Assembly: GCF_030384885.1 (NCBI RefSeq)
Contig: NZ_CP128613.1
Length of the DNA stretch: 64,000 nucleotides
Source of the DNA: Escherichia coli
GTDB lineage: Bacteria; Pseudomonadota; Gammaproteobacteria; Enterobacterales; Enterobacteriaceae
Direction: 5' to 3' (one strand)
In this document: piece by piece, positions 2,614 to 50,963 of the stretch
Layout: each line of letters begins with the position of its first letter
Numbering within the stretch: position 1 is the first letter of the stretch
Notes under the pieces: generated by a model
Databases searched by the model: none
Told to the model about the DNA's origin: nothing
What the model saw: the letters and a program-made list of their open reading frames with translations, nothing else
Made by a program: the position numbers and the translations under genes

Positions 2614-3669
2614 ATGGAAATAAGCTTTACCCGCGTGGCACTGCTGGCTGCCGCGCTCTTCTTTGTTGGTTGCGATCAAAAACCACAACCCGCCAAAACC
2701 CACGCTATTGAAGTTACCGTTCTCGAAGGCAAAACCATGGGTACCTTCTGGCGTGCCAGCATTCCGGGCATTGACGCCAAACGCAGTGCCGAACTTAAAG
2801 AAAAGATTCAGACCCAGCTGGACGCTGACGATCAGCTGCTTTCGACCTATAAAAAAGATTCCGCGCTGATGCGCTTTAACGACTCGCAAAGTTTGTCGCC
2901 GTGGCCGGTAAGTGAAGCGATGGCCGATATCGTCACCACCTCGCTGCGCATTGGCGCAAGGACCGATGGTGCGATGGATATAACCGTCGGGCCGCTGGTG
3001 AATCTGTGGGGCTTTGGCCCGGAACAACAGCCGGTTCAAATTCCGAGCCAGGAACAAATTGATGCGATGAAAGCCAAAACCGGCTTACAGCACCTGACGG
3101 TCATTAATCAGTCGCATCAGCAATATCTGCAAAAAGACCTGCCGGATTTATATGTCGATCTCTCCACCGTCGGTGAAGGTTATGCGGCGGATCACCTGGC
3201 ACGCTTGATGGAGCAGGAAGGGATTTCCCGCTATCTGGTGTCGGTGGGCGGCGCGCTGAACAGCCGTGGTATGAACGGTGAAGGCCAGCCGTGGCGGGTA
3301 GCGATTCAAAAACCAACTGATAAAGAAAACGCGGTTCAGGCCGTGGTGGATATCAACGGTCATGGCATTAGCACCTCTGGCAGCTACCGTAACTATTACG
3401 AACTGGACGGCAAACGTCTTTCCCATGTTATCGATCCGCAAACCGGGCGTCCCATCGAACACAATCTGGTATCCGTGACGGTGATTGCCCCGACGGCGCT
3501 GGAAGCCGATGCCTGGGATACTGGCTTAATGGTACTGGGGCCGGAGAAAGCCAAAGAGGTTGTTCGCCGGGAAGGGCTGGCGGTTTACATGATCACCAAA
3601 GAAGGCGATAGCTTTAAAACCTGGATGTCGCCGCAGTTTAAAAGCTTCCTGGTGAGCGAAAAAAATTAA
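2614..3669 (+). CDS. apbE: FAD:protein FMN transferase (ApbE/Ftp lipoprotein)
   Basis: 351-aa ORF with lipoprotein signal (LLAAALFFVGC); position between ompC and ada. Confidence 0.9.
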   Translation: MEISFTRVALLAAALFFVGCDQKPQPAKTHAIEVTVLEGKTMGTFWRASIPGIDAKRSAELKEKIQTQLDADDQLLSTYKKDSALMRFNDSQSLSPWPVSEAMADIVTTSLRIGARTDGAMDITVGPLVNLWGFGPEQQPVQIPSQEQIDAMKAKTGLQHLTVINQSHQQYLQKDLPDLYVDLSTVGEGYAADHLARLMEQEGISRYLVSVGGALNSRGMNGEGQPWRVAIQKPTDKENAVQAVVDINGHGISTSGSYRNYYELDGKRLSHVIDPQTGRPIEHNLVSVTVIAPTALEADAWDTGLMVLGPEKAKEVVRREGLAVYMITKEGDSFKTWMSPQFKSFLVSEKN

Positions 3670-15937: not shown

Positions 15938-16561
15938 GTGGGTATGCTTGAAGCCAGAGAGTTACTTTGCGAGCGGGATGAACGAACCTTATTTAGTGGC
16001 TTGTCATTTACGCTGAACGCAGGCGAGTGGGTACAAATCACCGGTAGCAACGGCGCGGGGAAGACAACGCTTCTCCGTTTGCTGACGGGGTTGTCTCGCC
16101 CTGACGCAGGCGAGGTTCTCTGGCAAGGGCAGCCCTTGCATCAGGTACGCGACAGCTACCATCAAAACCTGTTATGGATAGGCCATCAGCCGGGGATCAA
16201 AACCCGGCTGACGGCGTTAGAAAATCTGCACTTTTATCATCGCGATGGCGATACCGCACAATGTCTGGAAGCCCTGGCGCAGGCCGGGCTTGCCGGATTC
16301 GAAGATATTCCTGTAAATCAACTTTCTGCCGGGCAACAACGCCGCGTCGCTTTAGCGCGTCTGTGGCTGACCCGTGCCACGTTATGGATACTCGACGAGC
16401 CTTTTACCGCGATTGACGTTAACGGCGTCGATCGTCTGACCCAGCGTATGGCGCAGCATACGGAGCAGGGGGGGATTGTGATTCTGACTACCCACCAGCC
16501 GCTCAACGTTACTGAAAGTAAAATCCGCCGCATTTCACTGACGAAAACGAGGGCCGAATAA
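15938..16561 (+). CDS. ccmA: Heme exporter ATP-binding protein CcmA
   Basis: 207-aa ORF; Walker [10 protein letters not shown]; LSAGQQRR signature. Confidence 0.9.
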
Positions 16562-43574: not shown

Positions 43575-44561
43575 TTACGCGGTAGTCGCTAAACGAAGCT
43601 TCAACAGCGCGCTCTGCAAAGCATTCCAGTCAGCTTCGCTGCTGGAAATCAGCTCAATACGACTGTCCGGTGGAGCAACGTTTTGCGTTTCAATGTGCAG
43701 GTCATCGCCCTGACGGTTGATTCGCACCAGCCCTTCGGGAATACGCATCACGCCTTTGACGCGTTCCACCGGTGCAAGTCGCGCCCATTCCAGAATGCCA
43801 ATGGTGTCGAATACCGTATCAGCGTCGAATATCCAGCCACAGGCCTGATGCCCTTGTCCACTGTTCAGACTGCGACGCCAGCGTTGATGCTCTGGCAGGC
43901 TTAACGCTGCTAACCCTTTTTTCACGCTATGCTGATGAGAATGCGCCGCGCTGGCGGGCAACTCGGCTAAATTGCGTCGTGGCAAATCCAGAAGATGACC
44001 GTCAATTTTCCCATGCTCGCTGTGAATTAATTGCCGATCGCCACCATTTTGCTGCCACCAGCGCTGTAGCGCTTGCTCACTTTCGGGCGTCGCACGGTCG
44101 GATTTATTGGCGACAATAATGTCTGCGGCAGCCAGCTGGTCACGGAAGTTTTCATTGCTGGCGCTTTTTTCGTCCAGCAGCAGGCGTGGATCGAGAATGC
44201 ACAACGTGGCGCGCAGATCTATCCACGGTTCATACACGGGCGCGGTTAAGAGATCGAGGATCTGTTTCGGATGGCCCAGCCCGGTCGGCTCTATCAACAA
44301 GCGGTCTGGTTTTCCCTGACGCAGTAAGGTATTCAACCCTACCTGCATGGGTAAACCATTAACGCAGCACATACAGCCGCCGGGGATCTCTTTCAACAAT
44401 GCGCCGCTATCGGCGAGCAAAGCACCATCAATTCCGACTTCCCCAAATTCATTAACCAGTACCGCCCATTTTTCGTTGGGATCTTTATGGGCTAACAGAT
44501 GAAGAATCGACGTAGTTTTCCCGCTGCCGAGAAAACCGGTGATGAGGTTGGTCCTGGTCAC
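43575..44561 (-). CDS. yeiR: COG0523 (CobW-like) zinc-binding GTPase YeiR
   Basis: 328-aa ORF; Walker A GFLGSGKTT; CxCC motif GGCMCC. Confidence 0.9.
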   Translation of the reverse strand: MTRTNLITGFLGSGKTTSILHLLAHKDPNEKWAVLVNEFGEVGIDGALLADSGALLKEIPGGCMCCVNGLPMQVGLNTLLRQGKPDRLLIEPTGLGHPKQILDLLTAPVYEPWIDLRATLCILDPRLLLDEKSASNENFRDQLAAADIIVANKSDRATPESEQALQRWWQQNGGDRQLIHSEHGKIDGHLLDLPRRNLAELPASAAHSHQHSVKKGLAALSLPEHQRWRRSLNSGQGHQACGWIFDADTVFDTIGILEWARLAPVERVKGVMRIPEGLVRINRQGDDLHIETQNVAPPDSRIELISSSEADWNALQSALLKLRLATTA

Positions 44562-44678
44562 AACGGCTCCGCAATACTCTTAAAAGTTAACTGAGCGTTA
44601 ATCCTGGCTAAAAAAGGCAGAAAAGAGAAGGGGAGAGCGGACGAAGGCGAGCTTCATCCGCTTTAACCGCAGAAATCG

Positions 44679-46145
44679 TTAAATTTTGAGGGTGTTTAAT
44701 AGCGCCTGATGCGCGCCGAATTGTACGATTTGTTGCCAGGCTTGTTCGATAGCCTGCACAAAATGCGGGTTATCTGGCAGATCATCACCGAAAACTTCAC
44801 GCAGAGAAAGCAGGGCGGTTACGCGTTGTTCACTGCTACTGCCCGCAACAAGTTCGCAAATTTTATCGCTAAGCGGATCGCGAACATCAATGGCATTTCC
44901 GGCATCATCAACGCCGCTGACGTAACGCATCCAGCCTGCAACGCCTAATGCCAGCAACGACCAGTCCGTTTCGCGCGCCAGATGTATGCGAATACCTGCC
45001 AGCATACGTTGCGGTAATTTCTGGCTACCATCCATTGCGATTTGCCAGGTCTTATGTTTCAGCGCCGGGTTAGCAAAACGTGCAATTAACTTATCTGCAT
45101 ATTGTGTTAAATCGACATCTTTAATTCGCAGTGTCGGCGCTTGCTCATCCAGCATTAATGCTCTGGCGGCATGGCGAAATGCGCGATCCTGCATGCAATC
45201 GCTGATGTGGGCGAATCCTGAGAGGTAACCCAGATAAGCGAGAAAAGAGTGGCTTCCATTAAGCATACGCAGTTTCATCTCTTCCCATGGCAGAACATCA
45301 TTCACCATTTGTACACCGGCGACTTCCCAGGCTGGACGCCCTGCAACGAAGTTATCTTCCACTACCCACTGGATAAACGGCTCGCAGCTAATTGCACAGG
45401 GATCATTCACGCCCAGATGCTGGCTAATTTCTGCCAGCGACTCGTCGGTTGCTGCCGGAACAATGCGGTCGACCATGGTTCCCGGAAAACTGACGTGTTC
45501 TTTTATCCACCCGGCGAGTTCTGGTGAACGTTTTTCCGCCATCCCCTGCACCGCGTTTTTCACCACATGGCCATTGTCGGGAATATTGTCGCAGGAGAGT
45601 ACGGTAAACGGTGCAAGGCCGCGTTCACGGCGTCGTTTCAGTGCTTCGACGAGAATACCCGGAGCGGAGTGAGGTTCTTCAGGATTTTGAAGATCGTGAA
45701 TAATCCGCGGATTGCTGGTGTCGAGTGCACCGGTGGCCGGGTCAATACAATAGCCTTTTTCGGTAATCGTCAGGGAAACAATTGCCACCTGTGGCTCGCA
45801 AAATTTCTCAATAATTGCCGCTAAGGAATCCAGTTTTGCATTCAGGCATTCGTGAACGGCACCGACAATTATCGCCTGATTGCCGTCCGCACCTTTCTCC
45901 AGCACGGTATATAAATGGTTCTGTGCGCGGAGCTGGCTCATCAGTTGATCGCCGCTGAACAAGCTGATCTCACAGATCCCCCAGTCGCCGCCCTGGGCAT
46001 TCAGCACACGATCGGTCAGTAACGCCTGATGTGCGCGGTGAAAGGCTCCGAAGCCAAAATGAACGATACGTGATTGCAACTGCTGGCGATCGTAGCGTGG
46101 AGCGTGTACCTGAGGCGGGAGCGTAGCGGAGGCGATTGTATTCAT
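44679..46145 (-). CDS. yeiQ: Mannitol dehydrogenase-family oxidoreductase YeiQ
   Basis: About 488 aa; start taken at ATG 46143-46145 (MNTIAS...); track ORF begins 3 codons upstream at a GTG. Confidence 0.85.
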   Translation of the reverse strand: MNTIASATLPPQVHAPRYDRQQLQSRIVHFGFGAFHRAHQALLTDRVLNAQGGDWGICEISLFSGDQLMSQLRAQNHLYTVLEKGADGNQAIIVGAVHECLNAKLDSLAAIIEKFCEPQVAIVSLTITEKGYCIDPATGALDTSNPRIIHDLQNPEEPHSAPGILVEALKRRRERGLAPFTVLSCDNIPDNGHVVKNAVQGMAEKRSPELAGWIKEHVSFPGTMVDRIVPAATDESLAEISQHLGVNDPCAISCEPFIQWVVEDNFVAGRPAWEVAGVQMVNDVLPWEEMKLRMLNGSHSFLAYLGYLSGFAHISDCMQDRAFRHAARALMLDEQAPTLRIKDVDLTQYADKLIARFANPALKHKTWQIAMDGSQKLPQRMLAGIRIHLARETDWSLLALGVAGWMRYVSGVDDAGNAIDVRDPLSDKICELVAGSSSEQRVTALLSLREVFGDDLPDNPHFVQAIEQAWQQIVQFGAHQALLNTLKI

Positions 46146-46321
46146 AGGAGTCACGTCTTAGTAACGATTAATTAACAATGACAGTGTAAAGTTATATGAC
46201 AGCAATTGAAATTGGTCTGGATTGTTAATGCGATGAAGTGTGAGGGCGATCAATCAACGAGTGAATATTGCGGGCGTAAGGTGTTCAGGAAGCGCAAAAT
46301 AGAAGATTGGTATAATAAATT

Positions 46322-46352
46322 AAAAAAGGGACAGTCTGAGCTATCCCTTTTC
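46322..46352. terminator. Hairpin terminator downstream of yeiP
   Basis: aaaaaaGGGACAGtctgagCTATCCCttttct. Confidence 0.55.
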
Positions 46353-46367
46353 TGCATGCGGCTGAAG

Positions 46368-46940
46368 TTAGTCAGCACGCCCCATATAACGGCGTTCTTC
46401 GATATGGATACGAATTTTTTCGCCCGGGCTTAAGTATTCTGGTACCTGAATCACCAGACCAGTGCTCAATGTCGCCGGTTTGTTACGGGCGCTGGCAGAT
46501 GCCCCTTTGATGCCTGGTGCGGTTTCAACGATTTCCAGATCAACGGTCTGCGGCAGCTCAAGCGCCAGCAGTTGACCGTCCCAGGTCAGCACCTGCATGT
46601 CCGGCATGCCGCCCTCAGGCATAAACAGCAACTCTTCTTCAATCTGATCTTTGGTGAAGGTATACGGGGTATAGTCTTCTTTATCCATAAAGACATATTC
46701 GTTACCATCGACATAGGAGAAGTCAACGTAACGGCGGGTCAGCGTCACGGTGTCAACGATATCATCACCTTTGAAACGCTCTTCTACTTTCAGCCCGGTA
46801 CGGACATCAGAAAAACGCATTTTGTACAGCGTAGCGGCACCGCGGGCAGTGGGCGACTGAATATCAATGTCCTTAACCAGCAGCAGTTTGCCGTTGTAAT
46901 TCAGTACCATACCTTTTTTAATTTCGTTCGCTCTTGGCAT
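46368..46940 (-). CDS. yeiP: Elongation factor P-like protein YeiP (EfpL)
   Basis: 190 aa from ATG at 46938-46940 ([22 protein letters not shown]...); track ORF carries an 85-codon upstream extension. Confidence 0.9.
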
Positions 46941-47094
46941 CGAAAAATTCCTGTAGTCGAAAATGTCAAAAATATCGCGACAAAGTACTCGCGACGGGCC
47001 TTTCGGGCAAGTGGTATTCGCACTTTTGCTGGTGCAAAAAAGGTGGTACTGTGCGCGCTCATCAATCCGGTGGTTAACCTTAAGAGAACAACGT

Positions 47095-47349
47095 ATGGAA
47101 TGCCGTCCGGGTTGCGGGGCGTGTTGCACTGCCCCTTCAATTTCCAGCCCTATTCCCGGTATGCCAGATGGCAAGCCCGCCAATACGCCCTGCATTCAGC
47201 TTGATGAGTATCAGCGCTGTAAAATTTTCACCTCGCCACTGCGGCCGAAAGTCTGTGCAGGCTTACAAGCCAGCGCTGAAATGTGCGGTAACTCGCGTCA
47301 GCAGGCAATGACCTGGCTTATCGAGCTGGAAATGCTGACCGCGCCTTAA
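47095..47349 (+). CDS. yeiW: UPF0153 Cys-cluster protein YeiW
   Basis: 84 aa from ATG at 47095 ([14 protein letters not shown]...); stop overlaps the setB stop on the opposite strand. Confidence 0.8.
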
Positions 47350-48527
47350 ACATCTTTAATCCGCAGTAAGCAAAACAGAGTGGCGATAATCATCACCATC
47401 GCAAACCAGAACACAGCGTGATAATTCCAGATCTCGGCGACGATGCCCGCCACAGATCCTGCGATGATCCAGCCCACGCGCGACGTGTTGGTATAGAGCG
47501 TGGTGGCTGAACCTGCCTGACCGGGCATCAAATCCTGAAAATAGAGCATCCCGATGCCGCCCAGAATGCCAATAAAAATAGCATTTAGCAGCTGCAAGCC
47601 CAACAGAATGACAGGTGAATGCGCCATCAGCATTCCTGCGTAAAAACAGACGCCACCCACGGCAGCAACGCGCATTAAGAAACGCTTACCCAGACGTTTG
47701 GCGAAATATCCGGCAATCAACATGGTCGGGATTTCCAGCCCGGCGGCGGTCCCCATCATCACGCCTGCCAGTTTCTCGGGAAGATGCAGTTCGTTGATAA
47801 TAAATAGCGGCATGTTGATGATGTACAGGCTGTTCGAGCCCCACATCAATGTACAAATGACAAACAGCAGCAGCGTATCGCGACGGTTACGGCGCAGCGC
47901 TTCAACCGTGCCGGTCGCCAGCGGAAGCTCTTTTTGCATCGACGGTAAAAACAGCCACACCATCACGCCGCAAACAATAAACGCTACCGCTGCGCTCAGA
48001 TACATTACCGTAAAGCTGAAACCCATCGCTAAGGCATAAGCCAGTGGCGGGCCAATGACCCATGCCAGTGAAACCTGAGCGCGTAAAAAAGAGCTGAACA
48101 TCACCGCCTCACGTCCGGTTTTGTCGGCATGTTCACGTGCAAGGGCAAACATTTGCGGGTTAGCGGTCGAGCCAAAGCTGCTAAGAAAGACGCCAACGAA
48201 TAGCAAAACAAAGTAGTTGCGATTCCAGGCAAAAAGGGTGCAGGCCAGCACGCCTAACAGGCAGCAAAAGACAATCAGCGATTTGCGATCGCCGCGCTTA
48301 TCAGAGCGCCCGGCGAGAAACTGACTGACCAGAATCCCAATGACAGCGCTGCCGGTAAAGAAGAATCCCACCATCGCCGGACGGGCATGTACTTCATCGG
48401 TAAGGAAAATACTGAGTGTCGGGGTTTGCAGAGCGCCCGCAATACCGGTGAGAAAGGCAACGATTAAAAACGCCGTCGAGGTCAGGTCAAACGATTTCGC
48501 GCTGGAGACTGCGGGGGAGTTATGCAT
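47346..48527 (-). CDS. setB: Sugar efflux MFS transporter SetB
   Basis: 393-aa 12-TM ORF. Confidence 0.9.
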
Positions 48528-48794
48528 GCTGGTCGATCACTGGAAGATGAAGACGCGGAGTTTACGCTGCTTGTCAGTAAATAAACAGACAGCAAAATCA
48601 AAAGCGCCACGAATAATCAAAATGCCATTTCACTCTTGCTGATTGTCTGCTGACGCTGCTGAATTGAAATTACTGACCACGGATTTTCCCATCAGCAATT
48701 CGGAAAAATGACAAAAAATTGTGCAGCACATCAAACTTTTGTTCATAACTTTACGGCTTTCCTTGCGTGCTGAAACAGAAGTATTATGCTTTCT

Positions 48795-48806
48795 TGAAAC
48801 GTTTCA
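48795..48806. promoter_or_regulatory. Cra (FruR) operator, distal site of the fruB promoter
   Basis: Perfect palindrome TGAAACGTTTCA about 90 nt upstream of fruB. Confidence 0.8.
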
Positions 48807-48862
48807 GCGCGATCTTGTCTTTAACCCTAAGCCAGGTTGGCGCTTTTTTTCTCATAGAAGCT

Positions 48863-48874
48863 GAATCGTTTCAA
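48863..48874. promoter_or_regulatory. Cra (FruR) operator, proximal site of the fruB promoter
   Basis: TGAATCGTTTCA within gctgaatcgtttcaattcagc, about 25 nt upstream of fruB. Confidence 0.8.
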
Positions 48875-48894
48875 TTCAGCAAGAGAGGAGAACT

Positions 48895-50025
48895 ATGTTC
48901 CAGTTATCCGTACAGGACATCCATCCGGGCGAAAAGGCCGGAGACAAAGAAGAGGCGATTCGCCAGGTCGCTGCGGCGCTGGTGCAGGCCGGTAATGTAG
49001 CTGAAGGCTACGTCAATGGCATGCTGGCGCGCGAACAGCAAACCTCTACGTTCCTCGGCAATGGTATTGCTATTCCACACGGCACTACCGACACCCGCGA
49101 TCAGGTGCTGAAAACCGGCGTTCAGGTATTTCAGTTCCCGGAAGGTGTCACCTGGGGTGACGGCCAGGTAGCGTACGTGGCGATCGGTATTGCTGCCAGC
49201 TCGGATGAACATCTGGGTCTGTTACGCCAGCTGACCCACGTACTGAGCGATGATTCCGTTGCTGAACAGCTGAAGTCAGCAACGACAGCAGAAGAACTTC
49301 GCGCATTGCTGATGGGCGAAAAGCAGAGTGAGCAGCTGAAGCTCGATAACGAAATGCTGACGCTGGATATTGTCGCCAGCGATCTGCTGACGCTTCAGGC
49401 GCTTAACGCTGCGCGTCTGAAAGAAGCAGGGGCAGTTGACGCCACCTTCGTCACTAAAGCCATCAATGAACAACCGCTGAACCTCGGACAGGGCATCTGG
49501 CTGAGCGATAGCGCTGAAGGCAATTTGCGTAGCGCGATTGCGGTAAGCCGTGCGGCAAATGCTTTTGATGTGGACGGCGAAACGGCAGCCATGCTGGTGA
49601 GTGTGGCGATGAATGACGATCAGCCCGTCGCGGTTCTTAAGCGTCTCGCTGATTTGTTGCTCGACAATAAAGCTGACCGTTTGCTGAAAGCGGATGCGGC
49701 AACGTTGCTGGCGCTGCTGACCAGCGATGATGCGCCGACCGACGACGTGTTAAGCGCGGAGTTTGTGGTGCGCAATGAACACGGCCTGCATGCTCGTCCA
49801 GGTACCATGCTGGTCAATACTATTAAACAATTTAACAGTGATATTACCGTGACAAACCTTGATGGCACCGGCAAACCGGCAAACGGACGTAGTCTGATGA
49901 AAGTTGTGGCACTTGGCGTTAAGAAAGGTCATCGCCTACGCTTTACCGCCCAGGGTGCAGATGCTGAGCAGGCGCTGAAAGCCATTGGCGACGCTATCGC
50001 TGCTGGTCTTGGGGAGGGCGCATAA
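48895..50025 (+). CDS. fruB: Fructose PTS multiphosphoryl transfer protein FruB (EIIA-M-FPr)
   Basis: 376-aa ORF; EIIA-like N-domain and C-terminal HPr-like domain (GLHARPG). Confidence 0.95.
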
Positions 50026-50963
50026 TGAGCAGACGTGTTGCTACTATCACCCTTAATCCGGCTTATGACCTTGTTGGTTTCTGCCCGGAAATTGAACGCG
50101 GCGAAGTGAACCTGGTGAAAACCACCGGTCTGCATGCGGCGGGTAAAGGCATCAACGTGGCCAAAGTATTAAAAGACCTGGGGATTGATGTCACCGTTGG
50201 CGGCTTCCTCGGTAAAGACAATCAGGATGGTTTTCAGCAACTGTTCAGCGAGCTGGGCATTGCCAACCGTTTCCAGGTTGTACAGGGGCGCACCCGAATT
50301 AACGTTAAGCTGACGGAAAAAGACGGCGAAGTGACCGACTTCAACTTCTCGGGTTTTGAAGTTACCCCCGCCGACTGGGAACGCTTTGTGACTGATTCTC
50401 TGAGCTGGCTCGGTCAGTTCGATATGGTCTGTGTCAGCGGAAGCTTACCGTCAGGCGTCAGCCCGGAAGCGTTCACCGACTGGATGACTCGCCTGCGTAG
50501 TCAGTGTCCTTGCATTATCTTTGATAGTAGCCGTGAAGCGTTAGTGGCAGGTTTGAAAGCGGCACCGTGGCTGGTGAAACCTAACCGCCGCGAGCTGGAA
50601 ATCTGGGCGGGCCGTAAACTGCCTGAAATGAAAGATGTGATTGAAGCTGCGCATGCGCTGCGTGAACAAGGTATCGCGCATGTCGTTATTTCACTGGGTG
50701 CCGAAGGCGCGCTTTGGGTTAATGCCTCCGGCGAATGGATCGCCAAACCACCGTCAGTCGATGTCGTAAGCACCGTTGGCGCAGGGGATTCTATGGTTGG
50801 TGGCCTGATTTATGGCTTGCTGATGCGTGAATCCAGTGAACACACACTGCGTCTGGCGACAGCTGTTGCAGCCCTGGCGGTAAGTCAAAGCAATGTGGGT
50901 ATTACCGATCGTCCGCAGTTGGCCGCAATGATGGCGCGCGTCGACTTACAACCTTTTAACTGA
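50025..50963 (+). CDS. fruK: 1-phosphofructokinase FruK
   Basis: 312-aa ORF, pfkB family (GAGDSMVGG); start overlaps fruB stop by 1 nt. Confidence 0.95.
   Translation: MSRRVATITLNPAYDLVGFCPEIERGEVNLVKTTGLHAAGKGINVAKVLKDLGIDVTVGGFLGKDNQDGFQQLFSELGIANRFQVVQGRTRINVKLTEKDGEVTDFNFSGFEVTPADWERFVTDSLSWLGQFDMVCVSGSLPSGVSPEAFTDWMTRLRSQCPCIIFDSSREALVAGLKAAPWLVKPNRRELEIWAGRKLPEMKDVIEAAHALREQGIAHVVISLGAEGALWVNASGEWIAKPPSVDVVSTVGAGDSMVGGLIYGLLMRESSEHTLRLATAVAALAVSQSNVGITDRPQLAAMMARVDLQPFN

Follow-up and report, generated by a model that had tools for sequence, protein, structure and literature searches.

When two convergent genes share their last bases, is the arrangement a device by which one gene controls the other, or simply a compact way for two reading frames to end? 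The junction between yeiW and setB of Escherichia coli raises this question. The original prediction placed the stop codons of both genes within a single TTAA, reasoned that the two transcripts must overlap at their 3' ends with no room for a terminator between them, and proposed a possible site of antisense or convergent-transcription interference. We followed it up in a 64,000-nucleotide stretch of an E. coli genome (contig NZ_CP128613.1; hereafter, the window), in orthologous loci, and in published transcriptome data.

The yeiW and setB stop codons are interlocked in TTAA

In the window, yeiW (47095-47349, + strand) encodes an 84-aa YkgJ/CxxCxxCC cysteine-cluster protein ending in ...LTAP*, and setB (48527-47346, - strand) encodes a 393-aa MFS sugar efflux transporter ending in ...RIKDV*, with ORF, RefSeq annotation, and Pfam in agreement for both. 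The yeiW stop is TAA at 47347-47349 and the setB stop is TAA on the strand complementary to 47346-47348. The coding sequences thus share 4 nt, the TTAA at 47346-47349 that is read on both strands in the context gcgccTTAAacatc, and the central TA (47347-47348) is common to both stops. Position 47346 is the third base of both YeiW Pro84 and the setB stop, and position 47349 is the third base of both the yeiW stop and SetB Val393. Sequence, ORFs, and RefSeq coordinates all bear out the interlocked stops as they had been described.

The RefSeq annotations of strain 2013C-4282 (yeiW 277938-278192, setB 278189-279370) and K-12 MG1655 (setB 2263863-2265044, yeiW 2265041-2265295) contain the identical 4-nt overlap, and the 2.4 kb at the locus are 100% identical to strain 2013C-4282. 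The segment is single copy in 5413 of 5426 complete E. coli genomes, and the gene order here is yeiQ(-), yeiP(-), yeiW(+), setB(-), fruBKA(+). In the program-made ORF list a longer frame opens at 46963, but the annotated yeiW start is 47095. Elsewhere in the window lies ccmA (15939-16561, +), which RefSeq treats as a frameshifted pseudogene in the identical strain 2013C-4282.

This geometry has been described before. Among prokaryotic gene overlaps, 4 bp is the most frequent length (Lillo & Krakauer 2007, PMC2174442), and the tetramers of convergent pairs are TTAA, CTAA, TTAG, and CTAG; for E. coli, that survey gave 58 convergent overlaps, and a predicted intrinsic terminator was found for only 20% of such convergently overlapping genes. 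We observe every feature of this YTAR class at the junction, namely, a convergent 4-nt overlap of coding sequences, a TTAA tetramer, and two genuine genes whose stops are both used. The yeiW/setB pair does not differ essentially from the published class, in which the coding sequences likewise converge, the stops share TA within a YTAR tetramer, and terminators necessarily lie within the partner's coding sequence; what is added here is conservation in about 44 species and outer bases confined to Y and R. Within the window, one of the eight convergent pairs overlaps. YTAR tetramers occur 502 times in the window versus 727 expected, a count that is uninformative. The convergent ends of yejG(+) and yejF(-), at about 34496-34500, lie 3 nt apart, and this pair is also found on the published ExcludonFinder list (PMC12288877).

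Both genes are real and both stops are used

With respect to the coding sequences themselves, YeiW scores 31.5 bits with Pfam PF03692 (CxxCxxCC; cutoff, 23), SetB scores 151 bits with MFS_1, and the neighboring YeiP carries three EF-P domains (Pfam). A scan of one genome per species yielded 567 YeiW relatives confirmed by tblastn, with 65 to 96% identity over the full length, distributed over Enterobacterales, Burkholderiales, and others; the best 80 of these 567 loci were kept, and the constraint analysis was based on 34 orthologous loci in which both yeiW and setB align without gaps. Across these 34 loci SetB can be aligned end to end (residues 1-393), and entropy at codon positions 1, 2, and 3 amounts to 0.40, 0.29, and 1.30 bits for yeiW and to 0.33, 0.17, and 1.14 bits for setB. 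The C-termini ...TAP* (YeiW) and ...(R/K)I(K/R)D(V/I)* (SetB) are kept throughout, and this alignment shows purifying selection on both protein ends.

The columns of the tetramer are equally restricted in the 34 orthologs: position 47346 is T in 21 and C in 13, positions 47347 and 47348 are invariably T and A, and position 47349 is A in 32 and G in 2. The last SetB codon is Val (GTN) in 28/34 orthologs and Ile (ATH) in 6/34. Only Y is therefore seen at 47346 and only R at 47349, although the codons Pro CCN, Val GTN, and Ile ATH tolerate other bases. This is exactly what the partner's stop demands, indicating that both stops are used and are under selection. The use of a different stop, which would have spoken against the prediction, is thus not what the conserved C-termini and the Y/R-restricted outer bases point to, and the stop assignment holds.

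These data also dispose of the idea that the overlap is an annotation artefact, with yeiW being no real gene or SetB ending elsewhere. The shortness of yeiW (84 aa) and its late addition to the K-12 annotation (locus tag b4502) would fit such an artefact, but the Pfam score above threshold, the confirmed full-length relatives, the strong constraint at codon positions 1 and 2 of yeiW, and the conservation of both stops and both C-termini with Y/R-only outer bases effectively refute it, and we consider it to have hardly any chance of being correct.

The overlap is widely conserved and repeatedly lost

Convergent setB adjoins yeiW in 54 of the best 80 species-level loci, and the exact 4-nt overlap is kept in 44 of these 54 (26 TTAA, 16 CTAA, 1 TTAG, and 1 CTAG). 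The genera concerned are Escherichia, Citrobacter, Kluyvera, Enterobacter, Kosakonia, Raoultella, Buttiauxella, Cedecea, Pluralibacter, Superficieibacter, and Rahnella. In Rahnella (loci L058, L059, L071, and L076; about 3252-3291), the SetB alignment stops 12 codons before the stop codon; the SetB tail is longer or different there, yet setB and yeiW again share a 4-nt YTAR overlap at their ends.

In the remaining 10 species, the stops are 5 to 32 nt apart, the overlap is 13 or 28 nt long, or an insertion of 322 or 1759 nt is present. Among the species with gaps are Klebsiella oxytoca, K. indica, and Citrobacter sp. MGH106; in the last of these, a short palindromic insert AGAGCC...GGCTCT leaves a 19-nt gap between the stops (locus L031, 3256-3274). 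In locus L040 the yeiW stop is TGA, the setB stop is lost, and the overlap has grown to 28 nt. The two insertions separate setB from yeiW in a Buttiauxella assembly (L053, 3256-5014; 1759 nt) and in Edaphovirga (L068; 322 nt), and Salmonella enterica has the opvAB operon, a horizontal acquisition, between the two genes (PMC12902445). Taken by itself, the junction is a repeated insertion site, with Salmonella opvAB, Buttiauxella, Edaphovirga, and Citrobacter sp. MGH106 as cases. Because of opvAB in Salmonella and the gaps, longer overlaps, and insertions in the 10 species, we regard the setB/yeiW junction as stable but dispensable.

A simple origin can be proposed for the tetramer. The reverse complement of Y-T-A is T-A-R, and therefore a pyrimidine followed by TAA or TAG automatically provides a stop on the opposite strand in one frame; a convergent ORF that reached its neighbor in that frame would end exactly 4 nt inside it. 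Once formed, the overlap persists since the central TA is fixed by both stops, while the outer bases, which are silent third positions of the partner, are limited only to Y and R. The column counts show that this dual constraint alone suffices to explain the persistence of the tetramer. The exact retention of the 4-nt overlap, including that in Rahnella, could also reflect selection for the overlap itself, as conservation of this kind fits both explanations.

Furthermore, we see no sign of additional information encoded at the junction. Third-position entropy is 1.10 for the last 7 codons of yeiW and 1.16, 0.99, and 0.86 over the last 30 codons of setB, compared with gene-wide means of 1.30 (yeiW) and 1.14 (setB) and lows of 0.72 to 0.83 elsewhere. 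There is thus no extra synonymous constraint by the junction among the 34 ungapped orthologs, and since the junction values fall within the gene-wide range, nothing extra appears to be encoded there. A scan of positions 44000-50500 against Rfam (E <= 1) gave zero matches.

No intrinsic terminator is found at the junction

The claim that there is no space for a terminator between the genes follows directly from the TTAA overlap, and because no terminator fits, the full-length mRNA of each gene runs antisense into the other. We observe no convincing terminator further downstream either. On the + strand, the 500 nt downstream of the yeiW stop are free of terminator-like motifs in 34/34 orthologs; on the - strand, such a motif within yeiW, downstream of the setB stop, occurs in only 1 of 34 (L030). 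The fold of 47330-47470 (+) has a z-score of -2.1, owed partly to an AU-only palindrome TTAAA/TTTAA that arises from the codons Lys-Ile plus the stop, and the fold of the setB 3' extension (-) has a z-score of +0.35. With these values, neither 3' extension is credible as a terminator, and the junction's own AU-only palindrome, TTAAACATCTTTAA, is too weak to act as one.

A bidirectional intrinsic terminator, that is, a G+C-rich hairpin between an A-tract and a U-tract, is likewise not what we find at the junction. Bidirectional terminators (Ju et al. 2019), so far as they are described where PMC7815308 cites them, also end two convergent transcripts in little space; the yeiW/setB pair differs from that description in that no space separates the genes and no hairpin is bordered by an A-tract and a U-tract.

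The untranslated 3' extension of yeiW, antisense to the setB 3' end (47350-47480, +), is C rich and G poor, with a C/G ratio of 1.5 to 1.65 in 78-nt windows over the first ~130 nt after the yeiW stop, a composition that marks it as a putative Rho-loading region. The supplements of Adams 2021 (PMC7815308) contain no Rho-termination entry naming yeiW or setB.

A transcript 3' end lies inside yeiW

Published Term-seq data place a strong 3' end within yeiW itself, at MG1655 2265251/2265250 (-), 44 nt on as counted from the first start-codon base, with an average of 66368 reads in LB at an OD of 0.4 (PMC7815308). Its intrinsic-terminator score is 6.97, where values of at least 3 suggest intrinsic termination, and its Rho score of 1.36 is nonsignificant; the main text of that study contains no discussion of it. 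The end maps to position 47139 of the window, directly after the hairpin GGGGCGTGTTGCACTGCCCC with its tail TTCA (47116-47139, +; yeiW codons 8-15), which a consensus terminator scan had also picked. The hairpin spans +22 to +41 and encodes Gly-Ala-Cys-Cys-Thr-Ala-Pro of the CxxCxxCC motif.

The 56-nt stretch 47095-47150 folds at -19.5 kcal/mol, with a z-score of -0.5. Most orthologs form some hairpin there since the Gly-Ala...Ala-Pro codons (GGNGC/GCNCC) are self-complementary; the pairing register is different and the U-rich tail is not conserved. As the register and the U-tail differ among orthologs and the E. coli z-score is -0.5, we rejected the hairpin as a conserved attenuator. In E. 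coli it is a putative premature terminator or processing stop that would limit yeiW transcription into setB, and the end at +44 could represent a translation-sensitive attenuator or a short stable RNA. The earlier reasoning about the transcripts was therefore right in one part and too broad in another: the overlap of full-length mRNAs stands, whereas part of yeiW transcription ends upstream, at +44, and for this reason never reaches setB. Transcripts ending before the overlap had been named as evidence that would speak against the prediction, and this holds for that part.

The MG1655 tables of the same study give no Term-seq 3' end for setB or at or near the junction (PMC7815308), and the SMRT-Cappable-seq supplements mention neither yeiW nor setB. 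Beyond setB, the fruB leader contains a weak hairpin followed by a T7 tract, AAGCCAGGTTGGCGCTTTTTTT (about 48829-48851, +), 44 nt upstream of the fruB ATG (48895). This hairpin lies between two palindromes, cttgaaacgtttcag (about 48794-48808) and gctgaatcgtttcaattcagc (about 48861-48881), which we take to resemble Cra/FruR operators. A very strong "orphan" Term-seq 3' end is recorded at it (MG1655 2263539, -; 218310-431335 reads; PMC7815308). We obtained no Rfam match for this site in the fruB leader, and our literature search found no paper on it.

Transcript overlap is documented, and interference is a candidate

The setB-yeiW pair is one of 165 convergent excludons of MG1655 reported with ExcludonFinder (NAR 2025, PMC12288877), which calls a pair when its transcription units, as defined by RNA-seq, overlap in 50% or more of 58 MG1655 data sets. 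Transcript overlap is therefore documented for this pair, and the complementarity of full-length yeiW and setB mRNAs at their 3' ends, which follows from the geometry, agrees with this RNA-seq overlap. With the overlap annotated, its class described, and the pair itself on an excludon list, the yeiW/setB overlap is already known.

Vanillin raises yeiW 9-fold on arrays, and a reporter with the yeiP-yeiW intergenic region responds with a 4.3-fold increase; setB is not mentioned in that study (PMC5291986). Direct RNA-seq coverage around the yeiW 3' end site is low, with 26 to 27 reads per 800 nt (PMC7815308).

From these observations the following course of transcription can be outlined. Transcripts of yeiW that pass the +44 hairpin would be untranslated after the stop, with no intrinsic terminator ahead, and, judging from base composition and the lack of hairpins, would most likely be terminated by Rho within the C-rich stretch that lies antisense to the end of setB. 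Transcripts of setB would run antisense through yeiW toward yeiP with heterogeneous ends and may occasionally reach yeiP. Collisions of RNA polymerases should be rare in standard media, and any mutual interference would be a by-product, probably weak at the low expression seen, and not the reason for the overlap. In principle, convergent pairs may interfere through polymerase collision or RNase III (PMC7154746), and the excludon listing together with the inducibility of yeiW suggests that interference could matter under other conditions. The proposed antisense or convergent-transcription interference is accordingly retained as a possibility, in the rank of a candidate.

The yeiP-yeiW intergenic region

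The intergenic region on the other side of yeiW contains a promoter-like element (46974-47011, -), recognized as a conserved motif and as a terminator-like match. It consists of a -35-like TTGCCC (47010-47005), a 17-nt spacer, and a -10-like TACTTT (46987-46982), and in its general form reads -35 TTGCCY, 17 nt, -10 TAnTTT. The motif CTTGCCTGAA..CGAGTAnTTTG.CGCGATATTTT is kept in nearly every Enterobacterales locus, among them several from Pantoea/Erwinia that lack setB. A consensus promoter scan of the window did not report the element. It is most likely the promoter of yeiP (EfpL).

An inverted repeat at 46995-46974 overlaps this element. In Escherichia and Kosakonia the repeat has the form TCGCGA-N8-TCGCGA, a palindrome that may serve as a regulator site. 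The terminator-like match at the same position is present in Escherichia and a few other genera, and its stem is not conserved. Since the motif also occurs in loci without setB and the stem is unconserved, we rejected the 46995-46974 hairpin (-) as a setB terminator.

Weighing the alternatives

Two readings give the missing terminator a function. According to one, its absence was selected and the pair is a functional excludon, in which colliding RNA polymerases and/or cleavage by RNase III let transcription of one gene repress the other; SetB, for instance, would fall when stress induces yeiW, with the +44 hairpin gating antisense entry into setB. The place of setB-yeiW among the 165 convergent pairs of the MG1655 excludome (PMC12288877), the vanillin response of the yeiW promoter region (9-fold on arrays, 4.3-fold in the reporter; PMC5291986), and the recognition of convergent pairs without an intervening terminator as an excludon type (PMC7154746) are all consistent with it, as is the terminator-like 3' end inside yeiW, which could serve as the gate. 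The conserved 4-nt overlap (44/54 species) may be counted on the same side, but it is fully explained by the dual stop-codon constraint, and synonymous constraint by the junction is not raised. Furthermore, few reads cover the locus, neither the +44 hairpin nor its U-tail is kept as a terminator beyond Escherichia, and the genes have been separated without apparent consequence in Salmonella (opvAB), Klebsiella oxytoca, K. indica, and Citrobacter sp. MGH106. We therefore consider a functional excludon unlikely. Like the convergent excludons of the concept of Sesto et al. 2013 (PMC7154746, PMC12288877), setB and yeiW are neighbors whose convergent mRNAs overlap at the 3' ends; the defining outcome of an excludon is mutually exclusive expression by interference or RNase III, whereas setB-yeiW has been listed purely on RNA-seq coverage. 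The E. coli convergent pair mscL-arfA, also on the ExcludonFinder list, offers a comparison: as far as its account in PMC10070815 goes, antisense crosstalk there likewise affects a membrane protein and the regulation is experimentally supported, while setB/yeiW is known by its overlap only. A more elaborate version, in which a translation-sensitive yeiW terminator gates stress-induced (aldehyde, vanillin) transcription into setB, lowers SetB via collision or RNase III, and forms a conserved module whose overlap is kept across Enterobacteriaceae for this coupling, is improbable in our judgment.

The other reading extends the setB transcript, which would pass antisense through yeiW into yeiP and couple the three genes as a noncontiguous operon. 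The order setB(-)/yeiW(+)/yeiP(-), with only 405 nt from the setB stop to the yeiP start, invites this idea; yeiW contains no convincing setB terminator, and the sole Escherichia match (46995-46974) coincides with the promoter-like element. It resembles the menE-menC-MW1733-ytkD-MW1731 arrangement of Staphylococcus aureus (PMC7154746) in that an opposite-strand gene, yeiW, lies between the codirectional setB and yeiP, but the fit is one of layout alone, and yeiP has its own conserved promoter-like element. In addition, the three noncontiguous operons that ExcludonFinder gives for MG1655 do not include setB-yeiW-yeiP (PMC12288877), the divergent yeiW/yeiP pair is present in many taxa without setB, and the antisense stretch of setB transcripts across yeiW, being untranslated, should be open to Rho. 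Such coupling thus appears very improbable.

We are left, with fair certainty, with an ordinary junction at which two unrelated housekeeping or accessory genes meet compactly, tail to tail, their stops interlocked in a YTAR tetramer. The arrangement is not unusual enough to need a special explanation.

What the junction means for the family

Should yeiW and setB prove to be a functional excludon after all, one more regulated convergent pair would stand beside the 165 E. coli candidates, and a sugar efflux pump would be linked to a stress-inducible cysteine-cluster protein. As an ordinary junction, the overlap is of little significance and opens no long-standing question. It is, in turn, a clean textbook case of complementary stops locking two convergent genes into a 4-nt overlap, in which the stop of one partner restricts an otherwise free third codon position of the other to Y or R across the history of a bacterial family.
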